From: an uncultured delta proteobacterium
Lineage (GTDB): Bacteria > Myxococcota_A > Polyangia > Polyangiales > B10-G4
Reading direction: 5' to 3'
DNA length: 64,000 nucleotides
Assembly: GCA_963727445.1 (NCBI GenBank)
Contig: CAVSGI010000010.1
Location: 960,001-1,024,000, forward strand
Shown here piece by piece: positions 48,714-64,000 of the stretch (its first letter is position 1; each line of letters begins with the position of its first letter). The position numbers were made by a program, and so were the translations under genes. The notes under the pieces are model-generated. The model was not told the DNA's origin. It searched no databases and saw nothing but the letters and a program-made list of their open reading frames with translations.

Positions 48714-50252
48714 TCAGCCGAGAAGACCCGGGATCGTCCCGGTCACCTCGCCGAGCGTATCGCCGGTGTGCCCCGCGGCCTGCATGGCGGTGATCAGCGC
48801 GCGTACCGGGTGAGCGCCGCCGGCGTCGATGTGCTGTCCGGTCATGAGCCCGCCGGCGTGGCCGCCGATGAGCATGGCCATGCGACTCACCGAGTGGGTG
48901 GCGTTCGCGGTGGAGCCGTCGTTGAGCTGGGTGCCGTGCCCCGCTTCGGGGGTGAAGACGAGCACGCTGTTGTCGAGCACGGTGCCGCCGCCTTCGGGCG
49001 TGTCCTTGAGCTTCTGCATCAGGTACGCGTAGTGGGAGATGTGCCACTGCAGCATCATCGAGACGTGGAATTGGCCGCGGTTGTTGGTGTCGCCGTTGTG
49101 GCCGAGCTCGTGGAGATCGGCATAGGCCGGATAGCCGAAGTCGGTGGAGATCGGCAGCACGCTCATGTGTGACTGGAACGCGGTGATCTGCAGGGTCGAC
49201 ACCCGCGTGAGGTCGCAGACGAAGGCCATGTGGATCAGGTCGCACATGACGCGCGCGCGCTCGTGCTCGTTGGAGTAGCCGGTGCCGCCCGTGATGTCCG
49301 CGCTGGTGGCGCCTGGATTGTCCGCGCCGATGGCGGGATCGGCGCCGGGATCGGGCGGCACCATGCACTCGCCGGTGGCCATCGGCGGGATGGCGGCGAT
49401 GCGCAGCTCGAGGGCGCGTAGCTCGTCGAAGTGGCGCTCGAGGCGGATCTGATCGGCGCGTCCGACGCGCGCCAGCACAGCGTCGCGCTTCTCCCCGATG
49501 AGGTCGAGAACGCTGCGCCGCGCGCGGATCTCGAAGTCGAGCCGCGCCGCCGCCGCGCCGTCGTCGGGCATGAAGCCGCTGAAGAGCGACATGTACGCGT
49601 TCTGGGGGCTCGTCTGCGCCTCGATGCGCCCCGCGCGTCCGCCGGCGTCGCGATACGAGATGTACTGGCGCCCCGCGTGATCGTATCCGCTCAGATAGAA
49701 GGGCACCTGGGCGCGCATCACCAGATGCCGGTGGATGGTGTCGCCGTCGTACATGTCGGCGATGATCTGGTCCGAGGTGGGCCCGTTGCAGATGAAGGTC
49801 GACTCGGTGGAGCGGGTGCCGCTGAGCAGTGGGCTCTTGCCCCCTCCGTGGAAGTCGCGGAAGGCGCCGCCCGCGGGCACCCCGCCCGCAGAGGAGTCCG
49901 ACGCGTTGAAGGGGATGTTCATGTTGCTGACGAGGGTGAAGTCGTCGATCAACGCGCGCATCGGCTCGAGGGGCGTGGTGATGGTGTACCCGGTCCCTGT
50001 CTCCGGCGGCGCGATGAAGTGGCCGGTCTCCGTCGTACGGGTGCCGTCGATCATGTAGTTGTCCTCGGCCCAGCCGTCGCCCCCGAGGGCCTGGCCGGCG
50101 AAGAGGATCGCGTAACGGGCGGGGGCGGCCCCTGGTTGCGCCTCCGCCCGGTTGCCATTGTCGTCGAGCATGCACTCGAGGACGGGCAGGCCCACGGCGA
50201 CGCCGCCGCCGAGCCCCAGGAGGAAGGTGCGCCTGTCGAGCTTGAAAGCCAT
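48714..50252 (-). CDS. DUF1552-family protein with a Tat-like signal
   Basis: LDRRTFLLGLG..GLPVLECM; RRSVLD; RLERHFDELRALE; AFVCDLTRV; EGGGTVLDNS. Confidence 0.85.
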   Translation of the reverse strand: MAFKLDRRTFLLGLGGGVAVGLPVLECMLDDNGNRAEAQPGAAPARYAILFAGQALGGDGWAEDNYMIDGTRTTETGHFIAPPETGTGYTITTPLEPMRALIDDFTLVSNMNIPFNASDSSAGGVPAGGAFRDFHGGGKSPLLSGTRSTESTFICNGPTSDQIIADMYDGDTIHRHLVMRAQVPFYLSGYDHAGRQYISYRDAGGRAGRIEAQTSPQNAYMSLFSGFMPDDGAAAARLDFEIRARRSVLDLIGEKRDAVLARVGRADQIRLERHFDELRALELRIAAIPPMATGECMVPPDPGADPAIGADNPGATSADITGGTGYSNEHERARVMCDLIHMAFVCDLTRVSTLQITAFQSHMSVLPISTDFGYPAYADLHELGHNGDTNNRGQFHVSMMLQWHISHYAYLMQKLKDTPEGGGTVLDNSVLVFTPEAGHGTQLNDGSTANATHSVSRMAMLIGGHAGGLMTGQHIDAGGAHPVRALITAMQAAGHTGDTLGEVTGTIPGLLG

Positions 50253-51922
50253 CAGAGTGCCTCCTCTCGGCGATGGGCGAAGCGTTCGCTCGCGACGAAC
50301 TCGGTGATGAGCGCTCCGAGGTCGTGGCCGTTGTCCGCGAAGATGGTGACGAGCTCGTCGACCGCCGCGCTCTCCACACCCTTGGCGGAGCGCCCGATGG
50401 CGAAGCTGTAGAGCTGCTCCATCGCGCAGCTCTCGATGTACCCGTCGGCGACCAGGATGTCGGCCAGCTCGGCGGGGCCGTTGAAAGGCGTTCCGTCCGG
50501 CAGGTTGCCGTCACCGTCGATGACGCACTCGGGGCGGCCCTCGTCGTGCTCGCGGAACACGCCGGCCATGTCGTAGTTCTCGAGCCCGAAGCCGATCGGG
50601 TCCATCTGGTCGTGGCAGCCCGCGCAGCCGGCGGAGGCGCGATGCGCCGCGTAGCGGTCGTACTTGCAGTCGTCGGGCGACGAGCCGGAGGGCGCCTGGT
50701 CCACGTTGACCGTGGCGGGCGGCGGCGGGATGACCTGACACATGAGGCGCGTGCGAATGAGGATGCCGCGCTGGGTGGGGCTGGTATCGGCGAACTTGGC
50801 GAAGGCCGACAGCACCGCGCCGTGGGAGAGGATCCCCGCGCGACCGCTGTCACCGTAGGGGACCCAGCCCTCCCCGCCCGAGGGGGCGGGCAGGCCGTAA
50901 TGCGCCGCGAGATCGTCGTTCAGGTAGGTCTCGTCGAAGGTGAAGAGGTTCGTGTAGTCCTGCGGCTCCTCGAAGACGACGCGATCGATGAGCGCGCTGG
51001 TCTCCATGGAGAAGTTCGCCACCAGCGCCGCGTCGTGCGGGATGATGCGGTAGCCCAGCCACATGGCGTGAAAGCGTCGCAGCTGATCGCGGGCCCGCGG
51101 GTCGGCGAGCATGCGGGCGACGGCGGTTCGGCGCCCCTCCTCGGTGACGAGCGCCCCCGAGGCGGCCTCGCCGAGGAGCGTCGCGTCGGGCGTCGAGGCC
51201 CAGAGGAAGTAGCTCATCCGGCTCGCGATCTCGTAGCCGTCGAGGGCGAACACTCCATCCTGATCGGTGGGCGTGCCCAGCTCGATGCGATACTGGAATT
51301 CCGGGTCCTGGAGGATGGCTCGGATCACCAGCCCGATCCCCGTGTAGAAGTCGTTGTCGACTTCGGCGATGTCCTCGGTGCTGAAGGCCTGGAGCGTCAT
51401 GTACCGCGTGATCTCCTCTTCGGTGATCGGGCGGCGGAAGGCCTTCGGGGCGAAGTCTTCGATGAACGCGCGGAAGCAATCGGTGTCGCCCGGGCCGGTG
51501 GGCGTGCAGGGGACGATCGCGTCGCGGATCGTCGTATCGCTCATGGCGTTGTTGGCGACGTCGGTCGCCCAGATCTCGACAGAGGTGATCAGGTTCTCCG
51601 ACGCCATCTGGAGCGTGTAGTCGTTGTCGAAGGGCTGGAAGGGGTCGGCGAGGAGCATCGCGGTCGCCTCACGCCGGTCGTCGCCGAGGAGATCGCGGAT
51701 GGTGTTGTCGAGCTCGTGGGTCGTGAGGCGACGTGCGCCGCTCTCGGAGGCGTAGTCCGCGGTGACCGGTCCGACCGTGCCGGGTGGACGAACGGGTGGA
51801 CCGTCGCCGCCTCCAGGCTCGAGAACCTGGCCCACGCAGGCGCCGATGCCCGCCAGTGTGATGATGATCGCCAGGTCCAGAAGGTTTCTCCTGAACGCCG
51901 GCTCCTCTGCCCGCTTCTCCAT
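50252..51922 (-). CDS. DUF1587/1595/1592/1588/1585 multi-domain protein with a CxxCH motif
   Basis: RRLTTHELDNTIRDLLG, AFRRP, YEIASRMSYFLW, RAGILS, TSPTQRG, CAGCHDQMDPIGFGLENYD. Confidence 0.88.
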   Translation of the reverse strand: MEKRAEEPAFRRNLLDLAIIITLAGIGACVGQVLEPGGGDGPPVRPPGTVGPVTADYASESGARRLTTHELDNTIRDLLGDDRREATAMLLADPFQPFDNDYTLQMASENLITSVEIWATDVANNAMSDTTIRDAIVPCTPTGPGDTDCFRAFIEDFAPKAFRRPITEEEITRYMTLQAFSTEDIAEVDNDFYTGIGLVIRAILQDPEFQYRIELGTPTDQDGVFALDGYEIASRMSYFLWASTPDATLLGEAASGALVTEEGRRTAVARMLADPRARDQLRRFHAMWLGYRIIPHDAALVANFSMETSALIDRVVFEEPQDYTNLFTFDETYLNDDLAAHYGLPAPSGGEGWVPYGDSGRAGILSHGAVLSAFAKFADTSPTQRGILIRTRLMCQVIPPPPATVNVDQAPSGSSPDDCKYDRYAAHRASAGCAGCHDQMDPIGFGLENYDMAGVFREHDEGRPECVIDGDGNLPDGTPFNGPAELADILVADGYIESCAMEQLYSFAIGRSAKGVESAAVDELVTIFADNGHDLGALITEFVASERFAHRREEAL

Positions 51923-53049: not shown

Positions 53050-54106
53050 AGTCGAACACCTCGGGGCGGGCGTGGTCGAGGCAGCCCGCCGCCGCCCAGA
53101 GGTCCTTCGCCGATAGGTCCATCACCAGGGCTCCGCAGGTCTTCACGGCGTGCGGCGCCTCGGGAGTCGCGAGGTGGGCGCACACGCTCCGCGGGTAGCC
53201 GTCGTGGCTCCCGAGGCGCTGCCACATGTCCCGCCGGCTCTCGATCGCACGCTCGGCGATGCTCGAGGTGAGCCAATCGTAGCGGATGTGGGTGGTCGAC
53301 TCTGGGGTGCTTCGGTGCACCGCTGCCATCTCCGGGTCGAGGCAGTGATTCGTGTGCACGTACGAAGAAGCGCCGCCCTCGTAGACGACCTTCTCCTTGT
53401 GGCCGCTGGTCTCGATCCCGTAGGCGGTGTCGCCCTTCGCGACGAGGTAGTGATGGCCGCTCCCGAGGGGGCTCTTCAGGATCACGTCGCGACCTTCTTC
53501 GGCCGTGCGCTCCGCCAGCACCCGCCGCACGAGCGCCGGCCAGACGATGCCCACCTTGGCGTCGAGGCTCTTCAGGTTGTTGATGGTGATGGCGAGCCCC
53601 TCGGCGTTCATCCCCGTCATGCCGAGACAGCCGGTGATGGTGAAGACCCACGCCGCGGGGACCTCTGCCCGCGCCGGCACGCGCAGCATCATCACGTAGG
53701 GCTCCGCGGAGCCGTGCATGTCCCAGGTCTGGCCGAGCAGTGGTCCACCCGCCGAGCGCGCGAAGACCGCGGAGCAGTCCTCCTCCGCCGGCGCGTCGGG
53801 AGCTGCGGGCACGATGTCCCGCAGATCGGTGTAGTGGTTGAGGACGACGATCCGCGCCGGCTCGACGCCCGAGCCTTCGGCGATGCCGAGGAGCTCTTCC
53901 GAGAGGTCCGGGCTCTCTTCGGCCAACACCGGCAGGTGCTCGGCGGCGACCGCGAGGATCTGTGCTTCGGTGGTGAACGCTCCGAGCGTCTTCACCAGAC
54001 CGAGGCGGATCTCCGCGATCTCGGCGATCATCGGCGCGAAGGCCTCTCCGTGCGCCCGGCCCCAGTCCCGGGGCGAGGCGCCATCGGGTAGCTCGAAGAC
54101 CTTCAC
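53039..54106 (-). CDS. C45-family Ntn-hydrolase (isopenicillin-N acyltransferase-like acylase)
   Basis: WGRAHGE, EELLGIAEG, autocleavage Cys in EEDCSAV, GQTWD, GMNAEGL, HTNH; GTGA overlap with the upstream gene. Confidence 0.85.
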   Translation of the reverse strand: MKVFELPDGASPRDWGRAHGEAFAPMIAEIAEIRLGLVKTLGAFTTEAQILAVAAEHLPVLAEESPDLSEELLGIAEGSGVEPARIVVLNHYTDLRDIVPAAPDAPAEEDCSAVFARSAGGPLLGQTWDMHGSAEPYVMMLRVPARAEVPAAWVFTITGCLGMTGMNAEGLAITINNLKSLDAKVGIVWPALVRRVLAERTAEEGRDVILKSPLGSGHHYLVAKGDTAYGIETSGHKEKVVYEGGASSYVHTNHCLDPEMAAVHRSTPESTTHIRYDWLTSSIAERAIESRRDMWQRLGSHDGYPRSVCAHLATPEAPHAVKTCGALVMDLSAKDLWAAAGCLDHARPEVFDFTR

Positions 54107-57100
54107 TCGAGCGCCTCGAGCAAGGCCTGCCGGAAGGTGGATGCCGCGCTCACGCCGAGATCGTAGGGCGGAACCACGGCGAAGCAACCGTTCGGGAACA
54201 CGCGAACCCGGTGCGCACGCTCCATCAGCGATTCGGCGATCTTCTTGGTGTGCTCTGCCGCCTCGACGACGCGATAGAGGCCGCGGCCGCGAACGGCCAG
54301 GCCCGCGTCGCGCGCCGGCCCGAGCGCCTCGTCCCATGCGCTCGCGAGCTCCGCGACGTCCACGTGACGCGCCGCGCGGAGCTGGTGGTGGGCGCGGATC
54401 AGGCTGAGCTCGTCCCCGTCCCAGGTGGAGACCATGGTCAGCGCAGTGGGTACGAAGTAGCGGTCGTCGCAATGCACGAAGCCGATCTGCCCACCGGCCC
54501 ACCACGACAGGGTGTTGGGCATGAAGTCGAGCTGGCTCGAAGCGAAGGCGCCGTCGCCCGAGCGGTAGCACCCGGTCGAGGTCTCCACGAAACCCACGGG
54601 CACGTCGAGCTCGTCCCGGAGCGCGTCGAGCACCTCGAGGTACTCGGCGGAGAGCACCCTGCCCGTCCGCTCCTGCACCGGCTCGACGAAGAAGCCGATG
54701 ACCGCCTCGGCCCCACCCGCCTCGTTGATCGCGGCGTGAAGCGCTTCGATCGATGCGTCGACCCCGACATCCTCGGGGTGCGGCACCCGGCGCCAGCGCG
54801 AGAAGTAGCCCGGCCCTTGACGGTGGACGCGCGGATCGCTGATGGAGCGCGCCGCGCCGGTGGTGTGTCCGACGTAGCCGCCCTCGAGCCCCAGCACCAC
54901 CTGACCGTCCGGCCGATGGAAACGAAGCGCGCGGACCGCCTTGTCGAAGGCCTCGTCACGGCTCGAGGTCAGATACATGTGCGGCATCTGCGGCAACAGC
55001 GCGTCGACGTGCTCGACGGCGCGCACGATCGAAGGCGTCACGTAGTTCATGACCGTGATCTTGTTGACCGTCGGCCCGTAGAGCAGGCCCGACTGCGCCG
55101 CGGCGCGGAGCGACGCGGGCGGCTCCCAAAACGGACGGCTGATCCCTCCGGCGAGGTCGATGAACGCCTGCTCCGGCTCCCTTCGCGTCACCGGGTCCGG
55201 CGCGAACGGACCCACGGGGATGCGGTAATAGATCGCCTCGGCTTCGGGGTCCTGGTAGGCGCCGATGAAACGGAAGAGCTCGTAGGCGCCGAGCTCGATG
55301 TTCACGTGCATCATCGCTTCGGTCTTGCCAGCGCGGTTGCGGCTGGTGGCATGACGGTAGCGGCGCGCTTCGTCCTCGGTGCGCATCTTCGCCGCCTCCT
55401 CGAGCATCATCATCTTGAGGCGCTTGCCGATGCCGAATCCGCGGTAGCTCGGGTCGACGGTGAGGGCGATCGAGTAGAGCGTGTTGTTCTTGCCGAGCAT
55501 CGGATCGCGGTCCGGCCCGGCGAGATCGCGGAAGCGCTCGAGGGGCGCGGCGAGGGCGCTACCCACCAGCACCCACTCCTCACCGTCGTGAGCCTCGGCC
55601 ACGATGGCGACGCCGTCGGGATCTTCGAAGCCCAGCGCCAGCCGCTCCGGGGGATCGCGCCGCACCGGCTCGTAGACCCGCTCCTCCATCAAGAGCACCC
55701 GCGCCAGCATCTCCTCGCGCTCGCGACTCTGGACGCGGCGAAAGCGCAGCTCCGGGGCTTCGCGCTCGTCGGGATGGTCGCGATGGCCGAGGCGCGTCCG
55801 GGGCAGGTCCTCCCACTTGGGCGGCGTCTTGCCGGGATGCGCCTCGAGCCAGGAGAGCGTCCGGCGCATGGTGTCGAAGAGGAGATCGAGCTCTTCGTCG
55901 TCGTAGCTCGTCGACAGCCGGTAGCGCACGGTCTTGGTGCCAGCGCCGAAGACCACCGCGCCGCGCCAGAAGCGCTGCGAGAGGTACGCCATCAGGTGAT
56001 CGGTGCTCGGGAGATCGAAGGCGACCGCGTAGCCGGTGTTGCGCGGGTGGCGCACCAGCTCCGGGAATCGCCGCGAGAGATCCTCGAGGCGCTTGCGCAC
56101 GTCGGCCTCGATCCACGCCGAGGCGTCGTCGGCCACCTCGTCGGCGTGGGCCAGACCGCGCACGCAGGAGGCGGCGTGGGAGCTCGTCGGCTCCGGATCC
56201 TCGAAGCGGCTCATCACCACGCCGACCTGGGCGCGCTTGGCGAAGCACACGCAGTCGGGGCCGTCCGGGTTGCCGTCGAGGGCCACCAGCTCGAAGCGGT
56301 GATGCCAGGCGAAGCTGCCGCCCAGACCGAAGCCGCACTGCACCTCGTCCATGATCAGCGGCACGCCGTGGTGACGCGTCAACAGGCGCAGCGCACGATG
56401 GAAGCGTGCCGTCGAGTAGCGATCGCCGCCCTCGCTCTGCATCGGCTCGATCATCACGGCGAAGTACTCGCCGGTCACGAGGGCGTCGTGTACCGCCGAG
56501 AGCGCGCGGATCTCCTCCGCGAGGAGCGCGTCGCCCATCGCGCCCCAGGTGCTCGCCGCTTCCTCGAGGCGCCCCTTGGCCACGGTGCCGAGGTAGTCGG
56601 GCGGCGCCGCCGGCTCACCGCCGTGGGGCGTCCACCACACCGGATAGGGAGCGTAACTCACCTCGTGACCGGCGATCTCGAAGGGAGCGCGCTTCTTGGG
56701 ATTGAAGCTGGCGTGGAGCGACAGGAGCGTGCGCCCGTGAAAGCTTCCCTCGAAGGCGAGGATCTTCCGCTGGCGCTCGGATCGTGCGCGCTGCCGACAG
56801 AGCGCGAGCGCCTTCTCGTTGGCTTCGGCGCCGCTGTTGACGAAGCTGACGAAGGGCAGCCCCGGCACCAGGTCGCGCAGCAGGCTGGCATAACGTTGGA
56901 GCGCTTCGTTTCCGCCGAGGGAGGTGTCGTCCGCCGACAGGATGGTGTCGCCGAAGCCGCCCTCCACGTAGCGCCGCACCACGGGCCCCTCTGCGAAGCC
57001 GCCGACCAGCGTCGCCGTCTGGCTCATCCCGTCGAGCACCGAGAGCGGCTCGTCGTCCACCGAGACCATCCACGGACCGACCGACCGCAGGTGATCGAAG

Positions 57101-58761
57101 ACGCCCGGCTTCTTCTCGCGCACCACGCGCCCGCCCGCGTAGAGCCGGTCGAGCCAGCGGCGCGACTCCGGCAGGTGCCCCCCCGAAGGCCGCACCGTCT
57201 TGAGAGGACGCGGGTGCGCGGCGAGGGTCCGCTGCGCCTCCTCCGCCTCCTCTTCGGCGTGGCGCGCATCGAGGGCGTCGAGATCCGGCGCGATCAGGTT
57301 CTTGGCGAGCTTGGGATCGAGCGTGAAGGCGCCGGGGAGGTTCTCCTGGATCGCCACCGGGATCGTCAGGTTGCGATGCGCGTATCCGCCGGCCGGCCGG
57401 AAGTTGCCAGCGCTGCCGATACCGCCGAAGGGCAAGCGGGGGCTCGCCTGGTTGGTGCTGCGATTCCAGTTGAGGATCGCCACCGGCGTCTGATCGAAGT
57501 AGCGGTCGAAGGCCTCTCGGCTCGCGGTGAAGACGCTGTGGGCCAGTCCCACCGGCGCCGCGCGGAGCGCCGCGATCGCCTCGTCGTCGCTCTCGAAGCT
57601 CTCGACGTGCACGTCTGGCCCGAAGAGCTCGACGTTCGTATAGCCATCGATGTCGTGCACGCCGTGCGGGAGCACGTGCAGGCGCGGCGCGATGAAGTTG
57701 CCGCCTTCGGGCGCCTTTCCACGGGCGACCACTTCGGCTCCGGCCGCCTCCGCCTTCTCCATCGCGGTGCGCAGCTTCTGGGCGCCGCCCGCGGTGGCGA
57801 GGGGACCAGCGAACGCTTCGGGATCGTCGGGGACGCCGTAGCGAAGCCCATCGACCAGGGGGATCAGCGCCTCCATCAGACGGTCGCGGACGGAGGCATG
57901 GACCAGGACGCGATCGGTGCAGGTGCAGCGCTGGCCGCTGGTCAGATAGCCGCCCACCACGATCTCGTGCGCCGCCTGCCGGATGTCCGCATCCTCGCGA
58001 ACGACGCAGGTGTTCTTCCCGCCCATCTCGAGGGCCACCAGGACCTCCGGCCGATCGAGGAGCGCCTCGAGGATGCGCCGGCCGGTGGGCCACGACCCGG
58101 TGAAGGCGAGCGCACGCAGCGGCTCTGCGGCGAGGAGCGCAGCGCCCGCGGCGCCGCCTCCCTGCACCACGTTGAGCACGCCCGGCGGCAAGCCGGCGGC
58201 GAGGGCCGCTTCGGCATAGCGCTGGCCGGCGAGGGGCGCGACCTCGCTCGGCTTCATCACGACCGTGTTGCCGAGGAGAAGCGCCGGGACGACGTGCGCG
58301 TGACAGAGGTGAAGTGGGAAGTTGAAGGGCCCGATCACACCGACCACGCCGTGGGGATGGTGACGCAGCACCTCGTTGGGGAACTCGGGCAGCGGGCCGT
58401 CGTGCAGATCTTCGCGGATGCGGCTCTTCACCAGGTCGAAGCGGCCGACGAGGGCGCGGATCTCGGTCTTCGCCTCGGGGCGGAGCTTTCCGACCTCGCG
58501 CACGATGGCGTCGGCCAGCACGTCGGTGCGCTCGCGAATCGCCTCGCGGAAGTGGCCGAGGATCTGGGCGCGCTCGTCGAAGGACATCGCCTTCCAGGCG
58601 GGGAGCGCGTCGGCGGCGGCCGCACACGCTTCACCCATGCGCCCGGGATCCCACTTCGTCTCCAGCACCGGCTCGCCGTCGGTGGGATTGTGGGAGACGA
58701 GGCTCTCGCCCTTGGGCTCGTGGAACTCACCGCCGATGAAGTCGCCGAGGGGTGTGCTCAT
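54103..58761 (-). CDS. Four-domain fusion: AstD-like aldehyde dehydrogenase + class-III aminotransferase + GNAT + degenerate class-III aminotransferase
   Basis: GPFNFP, LEMGGKN, GQRCTC, ELFGP, PFGGIG (ALDH); NSGAEANE, SFHGRT, IEPMQSEGG, MDEVQCGFG, FAKR (AT-III); LTVDPSYRGFGIG (GNAT); GYVGHT, VEPVQERTG, STWDG (second AT-III). Confidence 0.88.
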   Translation of the reverse strand: MSTPLGDFIGGEFHEPKGESLVSHNPTDGEPVLETKWDPGRMGEACAAAADALPAWKAMSFDERAQILGHFREAIRERTDVLADAIVREVGKLRPEAKTEIRALVGRFDLVKSRIREDLHDGPLPEFPNEVLRHHPHGVVGVIGPFNFPLHLCHAHVVPALLLGNTVVMKPSEVAPLAGQRYAEAALAAGLPPGVLNVVQGGGAAGAALLAAEPLRALAFTGSWPTGRRILEALLDRPEVLVALEMGGKNTCVVREDADIRQAAHEIVVGGYLTSGQRCTCTDRVLVHASVRDRLMEALIPLVDGLRYGVPDDPEAFAGPLATAGGAQKLRTAMEKAEAAGAEVVARGKAPEGGNFIAPRLHVLPHGVHDIDGYTNVELFGPDVHVESFESDDEAIAALRAAPVGLAHSVFTASREAFDRYFDQTPVAILNWNRSTNQASPRLPFGGIGSAGNFRPAGGYAHRNLTIPVAIQENLPGAFTLDPKLAKNLIAPDLDALDARHAEEEAEEAQRTLAAHPRPLKTVRPSGGHLPESRRWLDRLYAGGRVVREKKPGVFDHLRSVGPWMVSVDDEPLSVLDGMSQTATLVGGFAEGPVVRRYVEGGFGDTILSADDTSLGGNEALQRYASLLRDLVPGLPFVSFVNSGAEANEKALALCRQRARSERQRKILAFEGSFHGRTLLSLHASFNPKKRAPFEIAGHEVSYAPYPVWWTPHGGEPAAPPDYLGTVAKGRLEEAASTWGAMGDALLAEEIRALSAVHDALVTGEYFAVMIEPMQSEGGDRYSTARFHRALRLLTRHHGVPLIMDEVQCGFGLGGSFAWHHRFELVALDGNPDGPDCVCFAKRAQVGVVMSRFEDPEPTSSHAASCVRGLAHADEVADDASAWIEADVRKRLEDLSRRFPELVRHPRNTGYAVAFDLPSTDHLMAYLSQRFWRGAVVFGAGTKTVRYRLSTSYDDEELDLLFDTMRRTLSWLEAHPGKTPPKWEDLPRTRLGHRDHPDEREAPELRFRRVQSREREEMLARVLLMEERVYEPVRRDPPERLALGFEDPDGVAIVAEAHDGEEWVLVGSALAAPLERFRDLAGPDRDPMLGKNNTLYSIALTVDPSYRGFGIGKRLKMMMLEEAAKMRTEDEARRYRHATSRNRAGKTEAMMHVNIELGAYELFRFIGAYQDPEAEAIYYRIPVGPFAPDPVTRREPEQAFIDLAGGISRPFWEPPASLRAAAQSGLLYGPTVNKITVMNYVTPSIVRAVEHVDALLPQMPHMYLTSSRDEAFDKAVRALRFHRPDGQVVLGLEGGYVGHTTGAARSISDPRVHRQGPGYFSRWRRVPHPEDVGVDASIEALHAAINEAGGAEAVIGFFVEPVQERTGRVLSAEYLEVLDALRDELDVPVGFVETSTGCYRSGDGAFASSQLDFMPNTLSWWAGGQIGFVHCDDRYFVPTALTMVSTWDGDELSLIRAHHQLRAARHVDVAELASAWDEALGPARDAGLAVRGRGLYRVVEAAEHTKKIAESLMERAHRVRVFPNGCFAVVPPYDLGVSAASTFRQALLEALE

Positions 58762-59462: not shown

Positions 59463-59978
59463 TCAGCGCCGGTTGTCGAGGGGGACGCCGCGGACCCAAT
59501 CGGTACGCTCGAGGCCGTTGCCCTGGTGGCAGCTGATGCAGAAGTCGATGTTGCCGCCCTGTTGGAGGGTGCCGTCGGCGCTGTAGCGGCCCCACCACCA
59601 GTCGGCCGTCGCGGGCACCCCACCAACCGCGCCTTTGACCATCACGGTCAGGCCCTGGCGCGCGCCCGAGGCGTCGAACATCTCCTTGACGATCATGGTG
59701 CTGGTGGGGAACGCGTCGACGGTCGCGGTGGCGTCGGCGGGATCGATCCCGCGATAGGTGTCGAGCCCCTCGAAGGAGACCCACACGCTCACGGCGTTGG
59801 CGGCGTGCTGTGACATGAAGGGCGTGTCGTTCACCTGGGTGAACTCCCCGCTGGTGTCGAAGTCGGCGAGACGCGTGGTGATCGCGGCCTCGTCGAGAGC
59901 GCCACCGGCCATCTCGTTGCTGCAGGCGCTCGCGAAGAGCATCGCCCACAGAGCCCAGATCGCCTTCCCCGTCGTCAT
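59463..59978 (-). CDS. Cytochrome P460-family lipoprotein
   Basis: FASAC lipobox; FPTSTMIVKE, GLTVMVK, DWWWGRY, FCISCH. Confidence 0.8.
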   Translation of the reverse strand: MTTGKAIWALWAMLFASACSNEMAGGALDEAAITTRLADFDTSGEFTQVNDTPFMSQHAANAVSVWVSFEGLDTYRGIDPADATATVDAFPTSTMIVKEMFDASGARQGLTVMVKGAVGGVPATADWWWGRYSADGTLQQGGNIDFCISCHQGNGLERTDWVRGVPLDNRR

Positions 59979-59982
59979 CGTC

Positions 59983-61014
59983 TCAGTCTCCTTCATCACC
60001 CACCTGCTCCGGCAGGCAGGGCGCCATCGCTTCGTCCCAGAGGCGCTGAGCCTCCTCGTCCATGTGCGCGAAAAGGTAGCGTCGTGCGTCGCAAACCGCA
60101 CGCGCGTGCGGGTCGTCCTCGGCCAGCGCGGACGAGAGATCGTAGGCGCCGACGGGGACTGCGCCCTCCGGGCAGCGGAGCACCAGGCCCCCGCGCCCGT
60201 CCTCGTCACGCACGGGCGTGCCCGAGGGACAGGTGATGGTGACGTGCGGGCGATCGACGTTCTGCTCGCGCGGCCGATAGCGCTCGAGGGGGCTCGCATC
60301 CGAGAGAACGGCTCGCACCGAGTAGAAGCCGGCGGCGTCCGTCGGCCGCATCGGTCCGCCCTCCGAGGCGAATCGCCGGGGACCGCGAGCGCGCGCATGA
60401 CATCGAACGCAGCCGCTCCGCGCGACCAGCAGGTCGGCGACGGCGTCGAGATCGGTGCGCGGGCCGTACGCCGCGAGACCCCCGCCGGTGCGGACGAGAT
60501 CGGCGAGCGAAGCGTGCGCACGATGACCGAGCGCGGGGCGGTTCTCGGGCCAGGCGTAGCCCACCAGGGGCGAGCCGGGACCGGGACGCTCGGGACGCAG
60601 CAGGCGCAGGATCCGAAGCCCCTCCGGGCCGAGCCGCGCGCCGCGCACGTCGCCGACGGTCCACTCTCCGTCGACCCGCAAGAGCTCCACGCGATCGGCT
60701 TCGGTCCCCTCGGGGAGCACCAGCGCGCCGCGCTCGTCGACACCGATGGTCGCGTCGTCGGGGAGGCGGAGCCACACGTCGACCCGGCTCGACAGATCGC
60801 GCTGCGTCGGCCCGAGCAGCGGCGTGGTCATGTGGACGAAGCCCTCCGCCTCCCAGTGGTCGTCGGGGCGCTCGATGCGCAGGCGCTCCACCGCGTCGTC
60901 GTCGAGCGTGGGGTGGGTCCACGTGCCTTCACCCCGAGGCGCGTAGCTCGCCCAGATCCCGCCCGCAGCCGCGACGGAGACGGTCACCGCGAAGATCGCG
61001 ACGCCTGTCCGCAT
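59983..61014 (-). CDS. Exported hypothetical protein with a single CxxCH heme-c motif
   Basis: N-terminal hydrophobic MRTGVAIFAVTVSVAAAGG; GCVRCH; TGATG overlap with the upstream gene. Confidence 0.65.
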   Translation of the reverse strand: MRTGVAIFAVTVSVAAAGGIWASYAPRGEGTWTHPTLDDDAVERLRIERPDDHWEAEGFVHMTTPLLGPTQRDLSSRVDVWLRLPDDATIGVDERGALVLPEGTEADRVELLRVDGEWTVGDVRGARLGPEGLRILRLLRPERPGPGSPLVGYAWPENRPALGHRAHASLADLVRTGGGLAAYGPRTDLDAVADLLVARSGCVRCHARARGPRRFASEGGPMRPTDAAGFYSVRAVLSDASPLERYRPREQNVDRPHVTITCPSGTPVRDEDGRGGLVLRCPEGAVPVGAYDLSSALAEDDPHARAVCDARRYLFAHMDEEAQRLWDEAMAPCLPEQVGDEGD

Positions 61015-61718
61015 CACGCCACCTCCTGCGTCGTGAGGACGCCGCGCGCGATCAGATCCTCGCGTGCAGCCGCGAGGGCGGCGGGTACGACCGGCGCTGC
61101 GTCCTCGCTCAGCTCGCCGCGCGCGACGGCGAGCGCCGCGAGGTGCGCGATGGAGGGTTGAAAGCGCCGGACCGCCGAGGCATCCGGCATCCGATGGAGG
61201 AGCGCGAAGGTGGCGGCGGCGCCGGGGAGCGGCGCGTCCGGGTCGCGCCGAGCGGCGGCGGTGAAGGTCGGGACGTCGAAGGTGTACTGCCGGACGAAAC
61301 ACGGAACCACGTCGCCGACGGCGGGCGGCGCGCCGACGACCGAGAGTCGGTGCAAGCACTCCTCCCAGTCCGCGACTTCGGCCACCCGGGGATCGCGGGC
61401 ATTGGCGGCCACAGTCTCGGAAAAGCCGAGGGCGATCCTCGGAAAGTCGCGCTCCGCACCCGCCTCGGCGGCGAGATGCGCGTCCACCGCGGCGTCGAAG
61501 CAAGGCTCCCCCAGCGCATCCGCCGCCACCGCAGTCGCCGCGAACGCGTTTCGGAGGAGGTTGCGGCGGGCGGCCCAGACCATGCGCAACACGAGATCGA
61601 GCCGATCGACGCGGCTCCCGCCGCCGCATTGCTCGACGACGTCGGCGGCGTCGAGGCGCCCGTCGAGCCCGCGACGCATCGCCGAGAAGAACGCGCTCAA
61701 GTCCGACGGAGCCGTCAC
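61014..61718 (-). CDS. DUF2063-like MNIO partner protein (RRE-like N-terminus)
   Basis: RLDLVLRMV..RNLLRNAF..ALGEPCFDAAV..HL..F...VAEVADWE; directly after the DUF692 gene with GTGA overlap. Confidence 0.65.
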   Translation of the reverse strand: MTAPSDLSAFFSAMRRGLDGRLDAADVVEQCGGGSRVDRLDLVLRMVWAARRNLLRNAFAATAVAADALGEPCFDAAVDAHLAAEAGAERDFPRIALGFSETVAANARDPRVAEVADWEECLHRLSVVGAPPAVGDVVPCFVRQYTFDVPTFTAAARRDPDAPLPGAAATFALLHRMPDASAVRRFQPSIAHLAALAVARGELSEDAAPVVPAALAAAREDLIARGVLTTQEVA

Positions 61719-62557
61719 GCGCAGGCCCTCGCCCTCTTTGCACCTTCGAGCGCACGGTCCACGACGCCGCGCACCATGTCCGCTTCGTCGAGGACGCGGT
61801 CGAGGGACGGGATGTTCGTGTCCCACTCGAGGAGCACCGGCACCTCGCCCGTGCGCGCGAGGGCGCGCTCGAGGAGCGCCAACACCTCTGGCCGAACGGG
61901 GTGACCGTGATCGTCGATGAGCACGTCCTTCTTTTCCAGATGACCGGCGACGTGGATGCGCGTCGTTCGCTCGAGCGGCATGGCGTCGAGGAGCGCGTCG
62001 GGGTCGAGCCCGTGGTTGCGGGCCGAGACGTAGACGTTGTTGACGTCGAGGAGGAGCCCACAATCCGCTTCGTCGACGACGCTTCGCACGAACTCACCCT
62101 CGCCCATGACGCTCCCCGGCATCCGCACGTAGGTGCTCGGGTTCTCGACGTCGATGGGTCGCTTGAGGCGGTCCGCGGCCTCGCGGATCCGCGAAGCCGC
62201 GTGACGGATCGCGCTCTCCGAGAACGGCAGCGCGAGGAGATCGTGGGTGTGATGGCCGAGGACGCTCGAGAAGCTCAAGTGCTCGGTGTAACGGTCGATT
62301 TCGAGCTCGCCCAGGAGCTCATCGAGCCCCTGAAAGAGCTCGGGATCGAAGGGGTCGGGCCCGCCCAGGGACATCGAGACCCCATGGGCGCCGATGGACC
62401 ATCGCTCGCGGGCCCGACGGAGGGCGTGGAGGAAGGGACCGGGCTTGTCGAGGAAGTTCTCGGGAATGATCTCGAGCCAGTCGACGCGACGATCCGTCTC
62501 GAGGAGTGCGGCCGCAAAGGGACGCCTCAGCCCGATCCCTACTCCACGGAGTTGCAT
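61715..62557 (-). CDS. DUF692-family multinuclear non-heme iron-dependent oxidase (MbnB/TglH/ChrH/BufB-like)
   Basis: GVGIGLR, WLEIIPENF, HGVSMSLGG, TEHLSF, HDLLALPF, VENPSTY, LLLDVNNVYV, IHVAGH, IDDHG, LLEWD. Confidence 0.93.
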   Translation of the reverse strand: MQLRGVGIGLRRPFAAALLETDRRVDWLEIIPENFLDKPGPFLHALRRARERWSIGAHGVSMSLGGPDPFDPELFQGLDELLGELEIDRYTEHLSFSSVLGHHTHDLLALPFSESAIRHAASRIREAADRLKRPIDVENPSTYVRMPGSVMGEGEFVRSVVDEADCGLLLDVNNVYVSARNHGLDPDALLDAMPLERTTRIHVAGHLEKKDVLIDDHGHPVRPEVLALLERALARTGEVPVLLEWDTNIPSLDRVLDEADMVRGVVDRALEGAKRARACA

Positions 62558-62820
62558 CACATCCCCGAATCGGCCGTGGCGCAGCCCGCGTCCGCTGACG
62601 CATCCGCGGAGGGACAGCCCGCATCTGTCGCTGCATCCGCGGAGGGACAGCCCGCGTCGGTCCCTGGGCAACCAGCGTCCGATCCGGGGCAGCCCGCATC
62701 CGTGCCGGGGCAACCCGCACAACCAGCATCGCCGGTCGTCGAGTCGTCACCACAACCTCCCGTCGCCACCGCGCCGACTACCACGGCGACTTTCAGGACA
62801 TCCAAGAGTTCTTTCTTCAT
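62557..62820 (-). CDS. Putative MNIO precursor peptide: lipoprotein signal plus DAGC repeats
   Basis: MKKELLDVLKVAVVVGAVATGGC, then 6 DAGC + 1 AGC; SD-like GAAAGGTG before ATG 62820; TGATG coupling to the DUF692 gene. Confidence 0.82.
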   Translation of the reverse strand: MKKELLDVLKVAVVVGAVATGGCGDDSTTGDAGCAGCPGTDAGCPGSDAGCPGTDAGCPSADAATDAGCPSADASADAGCATADSGM

Positions 62821-62868
62821 CTCGCTCACCTTTCAAGAAGAGCCGCTCCGAGCGAGCGGAGCTTCAGC

Positions 62869-62894
62869 TACGGGAGCGAATAGACCCTCGTTAC
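62869..62894 (-). promoter_or_regulatory. Putative ECF sigma-factor promoter
   Basis: Minus strand reads GTAAC-gagggtctattcgctcc-CGTA, about 50 nt upstream of the precursor ATG. Confidence 0.55.
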
Positions 62895-62980
62895 ATCCGT
62901 TTCATCGCGTTCTTTCGAACGATCTATTCGAACTGGGTTGACGATTTGTGTTCGGCGCCTAGGGCCTACTGTCAAGGGGT

Positions 62981-64000
62981 TTACACCCGGGCGATGCGAC
63001 GTCGGGGCCATGCGATCCAGGCGAGCGCACAGGCGAGGAGCAGGAGCGCGGGCGTGCCGTCGCCGCCGTCGCCGTTGCCTATCACCGCACCCTCCGTCTG
63101 TGCGGTGACGTAATACGTGGCGAAGCGCGGCGGCTGCTCGGACGCCTGGAGGATCAGATCTTCGGAGAGGGCGTTCGCCGGGAGCTCCGCGCGCATGCGG
63201 GTCACGGTCGCCTGAGAGGAGGAAGACAGACCCCGGGTGGCGACCAACCAATCTTCCTGGGGGCTGGTGGGATCGCCGGCGGTCACGTAGGGCGCGGCGA
63301 CCGTCTGCGAGACCTCGGTGAGCCAGGTGCGGCCTCCTTCCTGTCCGAGGAGCTCCGACGCGACCGCGTCGTAGTCGAAGGTTCCGCTCGCCGCATCGTA
63401 GGTCAGGTCCTCGTCGGCGATCTCCGCGTTGGGGAAGTTCTGGACCTCCCATCGTCCCTCGGCGATGAGGAAGAGCTCGAGGCTGACGGTCTCCCCGATC
63501 CCCGCCGCGACCATGCGGAGCGGGAAGCTGACCTGCGCACCGGGAACGGTCACCCGCACCGGCTGCATCTGAGAGACGCCCGCGTCCGGCGAGAGGCGAA
63601 GCACGGCAAAGCTCATCCCTTCGTCGACGTAGTGCGCGATCGTCGGCGTCAGCGACTCGGGGATGGCGTAGCCGTTGTCGGTGAGCCAGCCCGTGAGGCT
63701 CATCGCGTCGTCGCTACCGATGACCACCGTCTCGTAGGGACCGACGACTTCGCTCGAGTAGACGGTGACGCGGGAGTCGGACGCGCCGGCAGCCGCCGCA
63801 GAGGCCCCGCATCCCAGGGAGAAGCCCCCGCCGCCCGATCCCGTGACCGGACCGTAGAGCGTCACCGCGGTGGCGCCGTTCAGGTACTGGAAGAAGGACT
63901 GCTGAGCGACGTCGATCTGCACGTCCGCACCGCCCGACACCGGCAGCACCCACACGAAGTCCTCCGGGTTGCCGGCGTACTCGAACTGATCCCAGAGGGT
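62981..64000 (-). CDS. DUF2330-family protein with a C-terminal membrane anchor; 5' end lies outside the window
   Basis: FVWVLPV, VGPYETV, WLTDNGY, YVDEGMSFAVLRL, FPLRM, TRMRAEL; TM helix + RRR tail. Confidence 0.8.
   Translation of the reverse strand, partial: TLWDQFEYAGNPEDFVWVLPVSGGADVQIDVAQQSFFQYLNGATAVTLYGPVTGSGGGGFSLGCGASAAAAGASDSRVTVYSSEVVGPYETVVIGSDDAMSLTGWLTDNGYAIPESLTPTIAHYVDEGMSFAVLRLSPDAGVSQMQPVRVTVPGAQVSFPLRMVAAGIGETVSLELFLIAEGRWEVQNFPNAEIADEDLTYDAASGTFDYDAVASELLGQEGGRTWLTEVSQTVAAPYVTAGDPTSPQEDWLVATRGLSSSSQATVTRMRAELPANALSEDLILQASEQPPRFATYYVTAQTEGAVIGNGDGGDGTPALLLLACALAWIAWPRRRIARV

Follow-up and report, generated by a model that had tools for sequence, protein, structure and literature searches.

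Why would an enzyme of a kind that modifies cysteine-rich peptides be encoded together with two predicted c-type cytochromes? This question is raised by a five-gene run on the minus strand of contig CAVSGI010000010.1 from an uncultured delta proteobacterium (assembly GCA_963727445.1), within a stretch of 64,000 nucleotides that we refer to as the window (C10:960001-1024000 of the host genome, G000, which comprises 9.47 Mb and is 86% complete). The run encodes the lipoprotein precursor of a putative RiPP (a peptide made by the ribosome and modified after translation), an MNIO (DUF692) enzyme, an MNIO partner, a protein with a CxxCH motif, and a cytochrome P460-family lipoprotein. An earlier description of this DNA, the sequence-only reading, had put the run forward as a candidate new MNIO system. 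All five open reading frames (ORFs) were recovered at the place it gave, with the first four genes joined by TGATG, GTGA, and TGATG overlaps as claimed and the P460 gene following, as also claimed, a few nucleotides later (a gap of 4 nt; an alternative ATG start at 59996 would give a 14-nt overlap). The GC content at third codon positions of the four non-repeat genes (0.85–0.92) is typical for the host genome (69% GC).

Our preferred reading, which draws on analogy with characterized systems and which we would give about an even chance, is that the five genes form one conserved unit in which a lipid-anchored, modified Cys-repeat arm with predicted copper binding would act with two predicted heme c proteins in envelope defense against copper and related thiol-reactive stress. 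The strongest evidence for a single system comes from two features that were absent from the sequence-only reading, namely fusion of the precursor to the P460 domain and a shared promoter.

The gene set recurs well beyond the host. Within the order, 21 of 301 genomes, the host among them, had a match to the CxxCH protein (a weak order-level hit in G146 was not confirmed), and its profile was matched in 12 of 401 genomes of a phylum sample, eight of which were new. Collectively, 19 loci, eight further fetched loci, and the window provided 28 Myxococcota loci with a CxxCH gene; source names on close homologs were Sandaracinaceae, Polyangiaceae, and Myxococcota, which makes a Polyangiales myxobacterium the likeliest host. 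A repeat lipoprotein is encoded next to the CxxCH gene in 24 of the 28 loci, and 23 of these 24 also encode the MNIO and its partner. In the exception (G173), the contig breaks off within the repeats, and an MNIO-partner pair that matches begins at the end of another contig. A P460-fold gene is present in 22 of the 24 loci, and the two loci without one stop at contig edges. All five parts were identified in seven of the eight genomes from outside the order, which had played no part in building the profiles for precursor, partner, and P460. Gene order varies, with the CxxCH gene located upstream, downstream, or divergent. These counts do not constitute a statistical test because kin are not independent, and one of the 24 loci (L043 from genome G122, with two of the 22 promoter sites described below) represents unpublished data.

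A scan of metagenomes yielded three loci from 527 candidates, comprising a duplicate of the G190 locus, a CxxCH-promoter-repeat locus, and a CxxCH-P460 fragment, and none of 64 candidates was confirmed in a search for related loci among genome contigs with the single CxxCH protein. A wide alignment provided no usable conserved stretch. DoxX was not detected in any of the 24 loci but is encoded elsewhere in 22 of those 24 genomes. The proposal that c-type heme proteins take the place of DoxX is thus borne out as far as absence is concerned, whereas "replacement" describes a mutual absence only; DoxX is missing from buf2 operons too, and buf1 can do without it (PMC11626156).

The repeat precursor and its probable modifying enzymes

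The precursor gene (62820-62557, minus strand) encodes 87 residues that comprise a signal peptide, a lipobox-type Cys23, an acidic linker, and seven core Cys in (D)AGC(P/A) repeats. Six of the core Cys occur in DAGC, and five core Cys are followed by Pro. Among 112,637 stop-to-stop frames in the host genome, this is the only one with at least two DAGC motifs. The precursor has no Pfam match and no NCBIfam family near its cut-off, and NCBIfam families matched none of the precursors of 12 relatives; the claim of a distinct MNIO system therefore holds in that the precursor fits no curated family. In all 24 precursors, as judged by eye, the first Cys after the signal lies at position 23–28 behind a hydrophobic stretch, and an acidic linker and 3–16 core Cys follow. 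Given the lipobox and the Lgt genes found in the host, Cys23 is predicted, with high confidence, to be lipidated.

The 196 core Cys of the 24 precursors are preceded by Gly in 194 cases and by Ser in two, with Ala at position −2 in 150 and Asp at position −3 in 82. Pro directly follows 151 core Cys, whereas Lys follows none. These counts define a family motif of x-A-G-C-P, of which DAGC is one form, such that the description of a DAGC-repeat precursor is accurate for the window but too narrow for the family. CPAGC and CAGC spacings are also frequent. We considered whether DAGC might simply be a common myxobacterial DAG linker and rejected this. When the precursor profile was searched against the 301 genomes, the 17 best hits were the known loci, as expected by construction, and the 13 of 16 weaker hits that were inspected were unrelated linkers, none of which carried GC repeats or lay within 1.5 kb of an MNIO.

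The MNIO gene (62557-61715, minus strand; 280 residues) encodes an apparent member of the bufferin/oxazolin-related group that scores 312 bits against PF05114 (cut-off 25). Judged by model scores, this enzyme is far closer to BufB (NF050167; 284.8 bits, cut-off 310) and HvfB (266.6 bits, cut-off 360) than to ChrH or MbnB, and the ApyH model also matches poorly. Membership of the ChrH/chryseobasin group was rejected (the score is 47 bits where 600 is the cut-off, the 280 residues lack a C-terminal helical extension, and the window precursor has no CPxCGxG), as was membership of the MbnB-type methanobactin group (32.7 bits against 325). The residues of the iron-binding His/Glu/Asp set H58, H93, E138, H202, H217, and E244 are invariant in 24 system MNIOs, and D246 is present in 23 of them. 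R11 is likewise found in all 24, and R12 in 20 of 24 as compared to two of 22 other myxobacterial MNIOs. In FonB, Arg15/Arg16 form the pair that reads the acidic residue of the substrate and Asp249 is the base (PMC13097082). When mapped by motif rather than by direct alignment with FonB, R11/R12 and D246 appear to be the retained equivalents of these residues.

The closest relatives of the window enzyme share its gene context. The sequence-only reading had named nearest DUF692 homologs without DAGC precursors and cytochrome neighbors as grounds against it, and this attempt at refutation failed: all four of the closest MNIOs (66–75% identity) are in loci with the same precursor and cytochromes, as are eight of the nine closest, with the exception (G012) having an ESSCG precursor and no cytochrome. 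In a tree of 47 MNIOs that included no characterized enzyme, the window enzyme belongs to a clade of five system members with 100/100 support.

The partner gene (61718-61014, minus strand; 234 residues) encodes a DUF2063/PME1-like protein. "DUF2063-like" was the right wording for it, since the window protein scores 17.7 bits against a cut-off of 27.2; nine of 12 orthologs match DUF2063, five of the 12 above the cut-off, and the HvfC model matched both partners tested weakly. In one related locus (L044), the MNIO and partner are encoded by one 546-residue ORF. In another (L121:5270-7003, also listed as P0038), the partner and the CxxCH gene appear as one 577-residue ORF, with the C-terminal part of the partner in another frame, which points not to a genuine fusion but to a frameshift or an error in assembly.

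All characterized MNIO-PME1 systems form 5-thiooxazole (PMC13097082), and from this kinship the MNIO and its partner probably do so as well. At Cys-Pro, such a reaction would be a new substrate specificity. An alternative, which we regard as improbable, is that other chemistry takes place at Cys-Pro (ChrH-like cyclization at C-P-x-G-C, or modification restricted to Cys-Ala/Gly), such that the product is no captophorin. This would accommodate the Pro intolerance of FonBC, the frequency of CPAGC and CAGC spacings, and the residue at the apparent position of FonB Phe250, which in the 24 system MNIOs is never Phe but one of T, N, Q, L, A, M, and H. However, Phe is found at that position in none of the 22 non-system MNIOs either, so its absence is no marker of Pro substrates. 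Moreover, the ChrH model scores only 39–52 bits against 600, the ChrH extension is absent, and the window precursor contains no CPACGMG-type motif. On general chemical grounds, we also reason that a 5-thiooxazole is closed with the carbonyl before the Cys and can do without the N-H of the residue after it, which counts against this alternative and leaves thiooxazole formation as our preferred reading of the chemistry.

The host genome encodes four further MNIO loci. One is a second, ordinary operon (G000:C12:333245-335243, L003) with a 97-residue lipoprotein precursor bearing EASCG/EGSCG repeats, and similar lipoprotein precursors adjoin many MNIOs across the order. Elsewhere (G000:C20:2001-20000), a block of ~8 kb with an MNIO, a partner, and a divergent gene for a Cys-rich lipoprotein is present twice in inverted orientation, one MNIO copy being frameshifted; this could be a duplication or an assembly artifact. 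A 709-residue ORF downstream of a lipoprotein gene (G000:C20:846979-849108) contains a divergent MNIO domain that forms a long branch in the tree.

The two predicted cytochromes

The gene that ends the run (59978-59463, minus strand) encodes a 171-residue cytochrome P460-family lipoprotein that scores 29.8 bits against PF16694 (cut-off 27). With its structure model (mean predicted local distance difference test score, pLDDT, 70.6), the top 12 Foldseek matches were all P460/c'-beta proteins (probability 0.96–1.00, E 1e-3 to 2e-2). A profile search with the protein also matched P460/c'-beta chains, whereas a PDB search with the single sequence returned nothing significant. K98 aligns with Lys78 of McP460, which is the cross-link residue, and T111 aligns with Asp102, the catalytic carboxylate (PMC11928373). 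H58, K98, and CxxCH are invariant in 50 system P460 domains, some of which are near-copies, while none of the 50 has Asp or Glu in the column of T111 (16 have one two residues further on). Because the carboxylate is missing from this position, which is the pattern of the inactive P460 of Nitrosomonas sp. AL212, hydroxylamine oxidation is unlikely, and we rejected a function as hydroxylamine oxidase. H58 aligns adjacent to the distal capping residue of Thermus c'-beta and is a candidate distal histidine from its position in the alignment; no other conserved sixth ligand was found in the domain.

In six of the 24 loci, the repeats and the P460 domain are fused in one lipoprotein. The same fusion was found in 28 of 44 precursor clusters (37–216 residues) among the best 8,000 candidates, a set in which at least two clusters are near-copies of the query. 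That the repeats and the P460 domain are often one protein is the strongest sign that arm and heme work together, and functional coupling of the two is, in our judgment, likely. Cytochrome c assembly genes were found in the host.

The second cytochrome (61014-59983, minus strand; 343 residues) is a predicted exported monoheme c protein of an undescribed family, with no Pfam or NCBIfam assignment. The boundary of the family is sharp: a threshold of E 0.001 gives 373 representatives (clusters at 50% identity), and one of 1e-10 gives 342. All 154 aligned homologs have exactly one CxxCH. R108, R124, D226, and C308 are invariant among them and three further Cys are conserved in 98–99%, while no second conserved His, Met, or Lys was identified. 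Its structure is modeled with confidence (pLDDT 92.6), but Foldseek returned no match, a profile search of the PDB returned nothing significant, and an Atlas search matched only the Myxococcota cluster of the protein itself, which is unnamed and was recognized below threshold. In a wide structural search of 48,161 chains, five P460/c'-beta chains were among the top 13, with weak Z scores of 5.0–5.3 that were tied with unrelated folds (root-mean-square deviation 3.8–4.4 over 113–133 aligned residues). Comparison of the two profiles with hhalign gave a probability of 6–13% and a score of 26–27 (30 column shuffles reached 16.7 at most) and set R108 of the CxxCH protein on K98 of the P460 protein. 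With some reservation, we read it as a probable P460-fold protein that is divergent and has no lysine cross-link.

The cytochromes might nevertheless be stress genes that share the regulation of the peptide but not its function, with the remainder of the run being an ordinary lipidated captophorin operon. CxxCH homologs stand alone in four of the 28 loci, and three of these form one well-supported clade; Myxococcota commonly encode P460-family proteins, and the host genome has a second copy; and Buf1-cytochrome c fusions have already been noted as rare curiosities (PMC12452194). Yet such independence would leave unexplained the repeat-P460 fusions in more than half of the precursor clusters, the fact that both cytochromes are kept in different classes and despite rearrangement, and the invariance of His58 and Lys98, and we consider it very improbable. 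We thus return to the reading in which both cytochromes belong to the unit.

The three stand-alone CxxCH genes that form a clade (L035, L038, and L041) are found beside sulfur-handling genes, namely DsrE in L035 and, convergent with the CxxCH gene, a rhodanese-MBL gene and two YeeE/YedE genes in L038 and L041. These neighbors hint at sulfur redox chemistry. The second P460-family lipoprotein of the host is encoded in a run of repeat-rich lipoprotein genes (G000:C10:1224855-1229829) and is unrelated to the MNIO.

Predicted promoter and proposed function

A motif, GTAAC-N16/17-CG(T/A)A (CGWA), is shared upstream of the operon and, in rearranged loci, of its separate units. In the window it is a predicted extracytoplasmic function (ECF) sigma, SigF-type, promoter (GTAAC-N17-CGTA; 62869-62894, minus strand) that starts 74 nt upstream of the precursor ATG; the boundary at 62894 in the sequence-only reading is its first base. 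The strict motif was identified upstream of 10 of 24 precursors (14 when loosened) as compared to nine of 8,202 called genes in the host genome, a comparison that is partly circular because the motif was first spotted by eye. At a spacing of 16–17, 22 sites were found in the loci of 23 relatives, versus 0–2 at six control spacings, and of the 13 sites that do not precede a precursor, 12 lie in the correct orientation ahead of a CxxCH, P460, MNIO, or adjacent ECF sigma gene. A sigma-70 promoter was not detected.

The motif matches the consensus of Caulobacter SigF (GTAACC-N16-CGAA; PMC3511200), which controls the buf1 and buf2 copper operons (PMC11626156). A pair of genes for an ECF sigma factor and a membrane anti-sigma factor adjoins three of the loci. 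The likely host ortholog of the pair (C13:157204-158453; 40% identity) has a site with two mismatches upstream, and the ortholog in G190 (59%) has a perfect site. The anti-sigma factors beside the three loci and at C13 of the host have two conserved-looking Cys and match each other weakly by BLAST; no NrsF hit was obtained with Pfam for the three tested or with NCBIfam for the host copy. A specific LysR gene adjoins nine of the 23 relatives' loci, and its host ortholog is 420 kb away. A stretch rich in TTCG/CGAA that lies immediately upstream of the ECF −35 element (62900-62950, minus strand) recurs, by eye, in L030–L033 and may be the binding site of this LysR. Between the promoter and the start of the precursor, the 5' leader contains a GC-rich hairpin (62843-62862), and the two calls of a terminator scan, at chance level, correspond to this one hairpin.

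In the mechanism that we propose, an ECF sigma factor would switch the operon on, the motif being observed and its use predicted. In the cytoplasm, the MNIO and its partner would convert the cysteine of each Gly-Cys into 5-thiooxazole with a loss of 4 Da each, or up to ~28 Da for the window precursor. The product would be exported by Sec and lipidated by Lgt at Cys23, and by analogy with captophorins a flexible arm with multiple rings would then chelate Cu(I/II) at the membrane. Least certain is the last step, in which the P460 lipoprotein and the monoheme protein may manage the redox state of the arm or of its bound metal, or remove an accompanying oxidant.

The other genes behind the motif complicate the assignment of a stress. 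They include msrB-msrA in the host and msrB in G022. The motif likewise precedes a glutathione reductase gene in G093, a peroxidase-like gene in G190, and FAD oxidoreductase genes of G000 and G093 that are orthologs of each other. In G190 (L153, G190:C172), the motif precedes an arsenosugar-associated peroxidase-like gene and an ArsS radical SAM gene. The copper or nitrosative link that had been proposed proves to be an analogy, and thiol and methionine oxidation stress is indicated no less by the other genes that the motif precedes. These genes are what would be expected if the arm were modified in the same way but served to scavenge oxidants, with its rings sacrificially oxidized by reactive chlorine, peroxide, or nitric oxide-type species, its heme proteins recycling the rings or destroying the oxidant as do MrpX/YedY under SigF in Azospira, and copper binding incidental. 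The specificity of Azospira SigF/NrsF for reactive chlorine (PMC4436054), the formation of P460 cross-links through reaction with peroxide (PMC11928373), and a P460 domain with no conserved sixth ligand except the candidate distal His are consistent with such a role. In contrast, a reversed-pattern control equals or exceeds the genome-wide motif counts in three of five genomes, and seven of 14 genome-wide sites precede unrelated genes or none. Agents producing reactive oxygen species do not induce the SigF genes of Caulobacter (PMC3511200), and characterized 5-thiooxazole peptides bind Cu. We regard oxidant scavenging as a possible but rather unlikely primary role and, by analogy, lean slightly toward copper rather than oxidant as the main target.

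Several observations weigh against the reading of a copper-binding unit with two cytochromes as a whole. The window MNIO falls below both the BufB and HvfB cut-offs, and only one of seven relatives exceeds that of BufB. At no position does FonBC, the model enzyme that has been tested, accept Pro (PMC13097082), yet Cys-Pro accounts for 151 of 196 core Cys. The MNIO tree, with an open base and 3 changes, does not establish the system MNIOs as one clade. Four CxxCH homologs, including the well-supported clade of three, occur without the rest of the system. No copper pump or oxidase was noticed in the gene lists of the loci, which were read by eye with Pfam applied to a selection. Finally, the MsrB/MsrA, glutathione reductase, peroxidase-like, and FAD genes behind the motif suggest oxidative, not specifically copper, stress.

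A more far-reaching and tentative proposal, which we think doubtful, is that the natural fusions represent a RiPP-modified hemoprotein. Here, a poly-thiooxazole copper arm and a lysine-cross-linked P460 heme with an invariant distal His would form a copper-heme redox catalyst in one lipoprotein, served by a second, divergent P460-fold cytochrome. If true, this would assign carboxylate-free P460s their first physiological role outside nitrifiers, and it would be the first case of a captophorin used in catalysis.

Other genes of the window were noted as well. A DUF2330 protein with a C-terminal sorting-like tail (62981-64000) is encoded directly upstream of the operon, and a DUF1592/DUF1588 and DUF1552 gene pair is found at 48714-51922; as far as seen, neither recurs in related loci. 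A 1,552-residue ORF (54103-58761), by eye a fusion of aldehyde dehydrogenase, aminotransferase-like, and GNAT-like parts, is followed by an acyltransferase-family (PF03417) gene.

Comparison with known systems

A literature search, mostly of non-subscription literature, returned no paper that joins "DUF692" with "cytochrome P460" and none that describes the system by title or abstract. DAGC, GCPG, and P460 are absent from two supplement files of PMC12452194, and the word "cytochrome" is absent from the main text of PMC13056109, whose precursor filter of 50–160 residues would miss fusions of ~200 residues. The precursor tables in the supplements of PMC13056109 and PMC13097082 could hold family members.

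The bufferins, as represented by buf1/buf2 and SigF/NrsF of Caulobacter vibrioides, share with the system the best-scoring MNIO model, BufB, and the promoter consensus (PMC11626156, PMC3511200). About 16% of Buf2 have predicted lipoprotein signals, and a few Buf1-cytochrome c fusions are known (PMC12452194). In contrast to bufferins, the precursor described here is an unstructured-looking repeat without a DUF2282 hit, its fused heme domain is of the P460 fold (PF16694) rather than PF00034, the fusion is common rather than rare, and the anti-sigma factor has no NrsF Pfam hit.

Among the DAG-RiPPs (lipo-NedA/NedBC and lipo-DybA/DybH; PMC13056109), MNIO substrates likewise have a signal peptidase II lipobox and are predicted to be triacylated, and triacylated, MNIO-modified DybA and NedA have been demonstrated experimentally (PMC13056109). 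Membrane tethering, which the sequence-only reading had taken as a novelty, is therefore not one, since lipidated MNIO RiPPs are published and lipoprotein precursors with EGSCG/EASCG repeats are common beside myxobacterial MNIOs. The system precursor differs from DAG-RiPPs in that it has no EGKCG, CPACGMG, or CxxxxC core.

The P460 lipoprotein resembles cytochrome P460/c'-beta, and in particular the inactive P460 of Nitrosomonas sp. AL212, in its fold, its CxxCH, the Lys at the cross-link position, and the lack of a carboxylate at the position of McP460 Asp102 (PMC11928373). It differs in being a lipoprotein, in having an invariant His beside the capping position, and in being linked genetically, and often covalently, to the substrate of an MNIO. 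As for the second cytochrome, it is double the size and has Arg at the lysine position.

A further likeness is to the captophorins with EGKCG/Lys-Cys motifs (oxazolin HvfABC and fontiphorin FonABC; PMC13097082). Common to both are the order of precursor, MNIO, and DUF2063 genes, a related MNIO in which the Arg pair and the catalytic Asp are apparently retained, and an exported precursor with tandem five-residue Cys repeats and an acidic residue three positions before Cys, such that DAGCP and EGKCG have the same acid-x-x-Cys register. However, the repeat described here is x-A-G-C-P, which FonBC would reject, DoxX is absent, and two c-type cytochrome genes are present, one of which is often fused to the precursor. 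Furthermore, the precursor lies outside the three described captophorin groups (DUF2282 as well as Lys-Cys and Cys-Lys), since it has no DUF2282 hit and Lys never flanks a core Cys.

MNIO-PME1 clusters are among the commonest RiPP systems, and their accessory genes and the fate of the copper they bind are open questions (PMC13097082, PMC11626156), while P460-family proteins that have the lysine but do not oxidize hydroxylamine have no assigned function (PMC11928373). The system joins the questions of captophorin copper fate and of carboxylate-free P460s in single natural fusions of ~200 residues, offers MNIOs predicted to act on the Cys-Pro that the model enzyme refuses, and gives an unnamed cytochrome family of 373 clusters a confident model and a genetic context. 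What is new is the predicted Cys-Pro substrate, the P460 fusion, and this second cytochrome family. Collectively, our findings suggest an undescribed stress-defense unit outside the cell membrane that works like a captophorin DAG-RiPP, has a precursor that falls outside every described group, and adds two conserved cytochromes.

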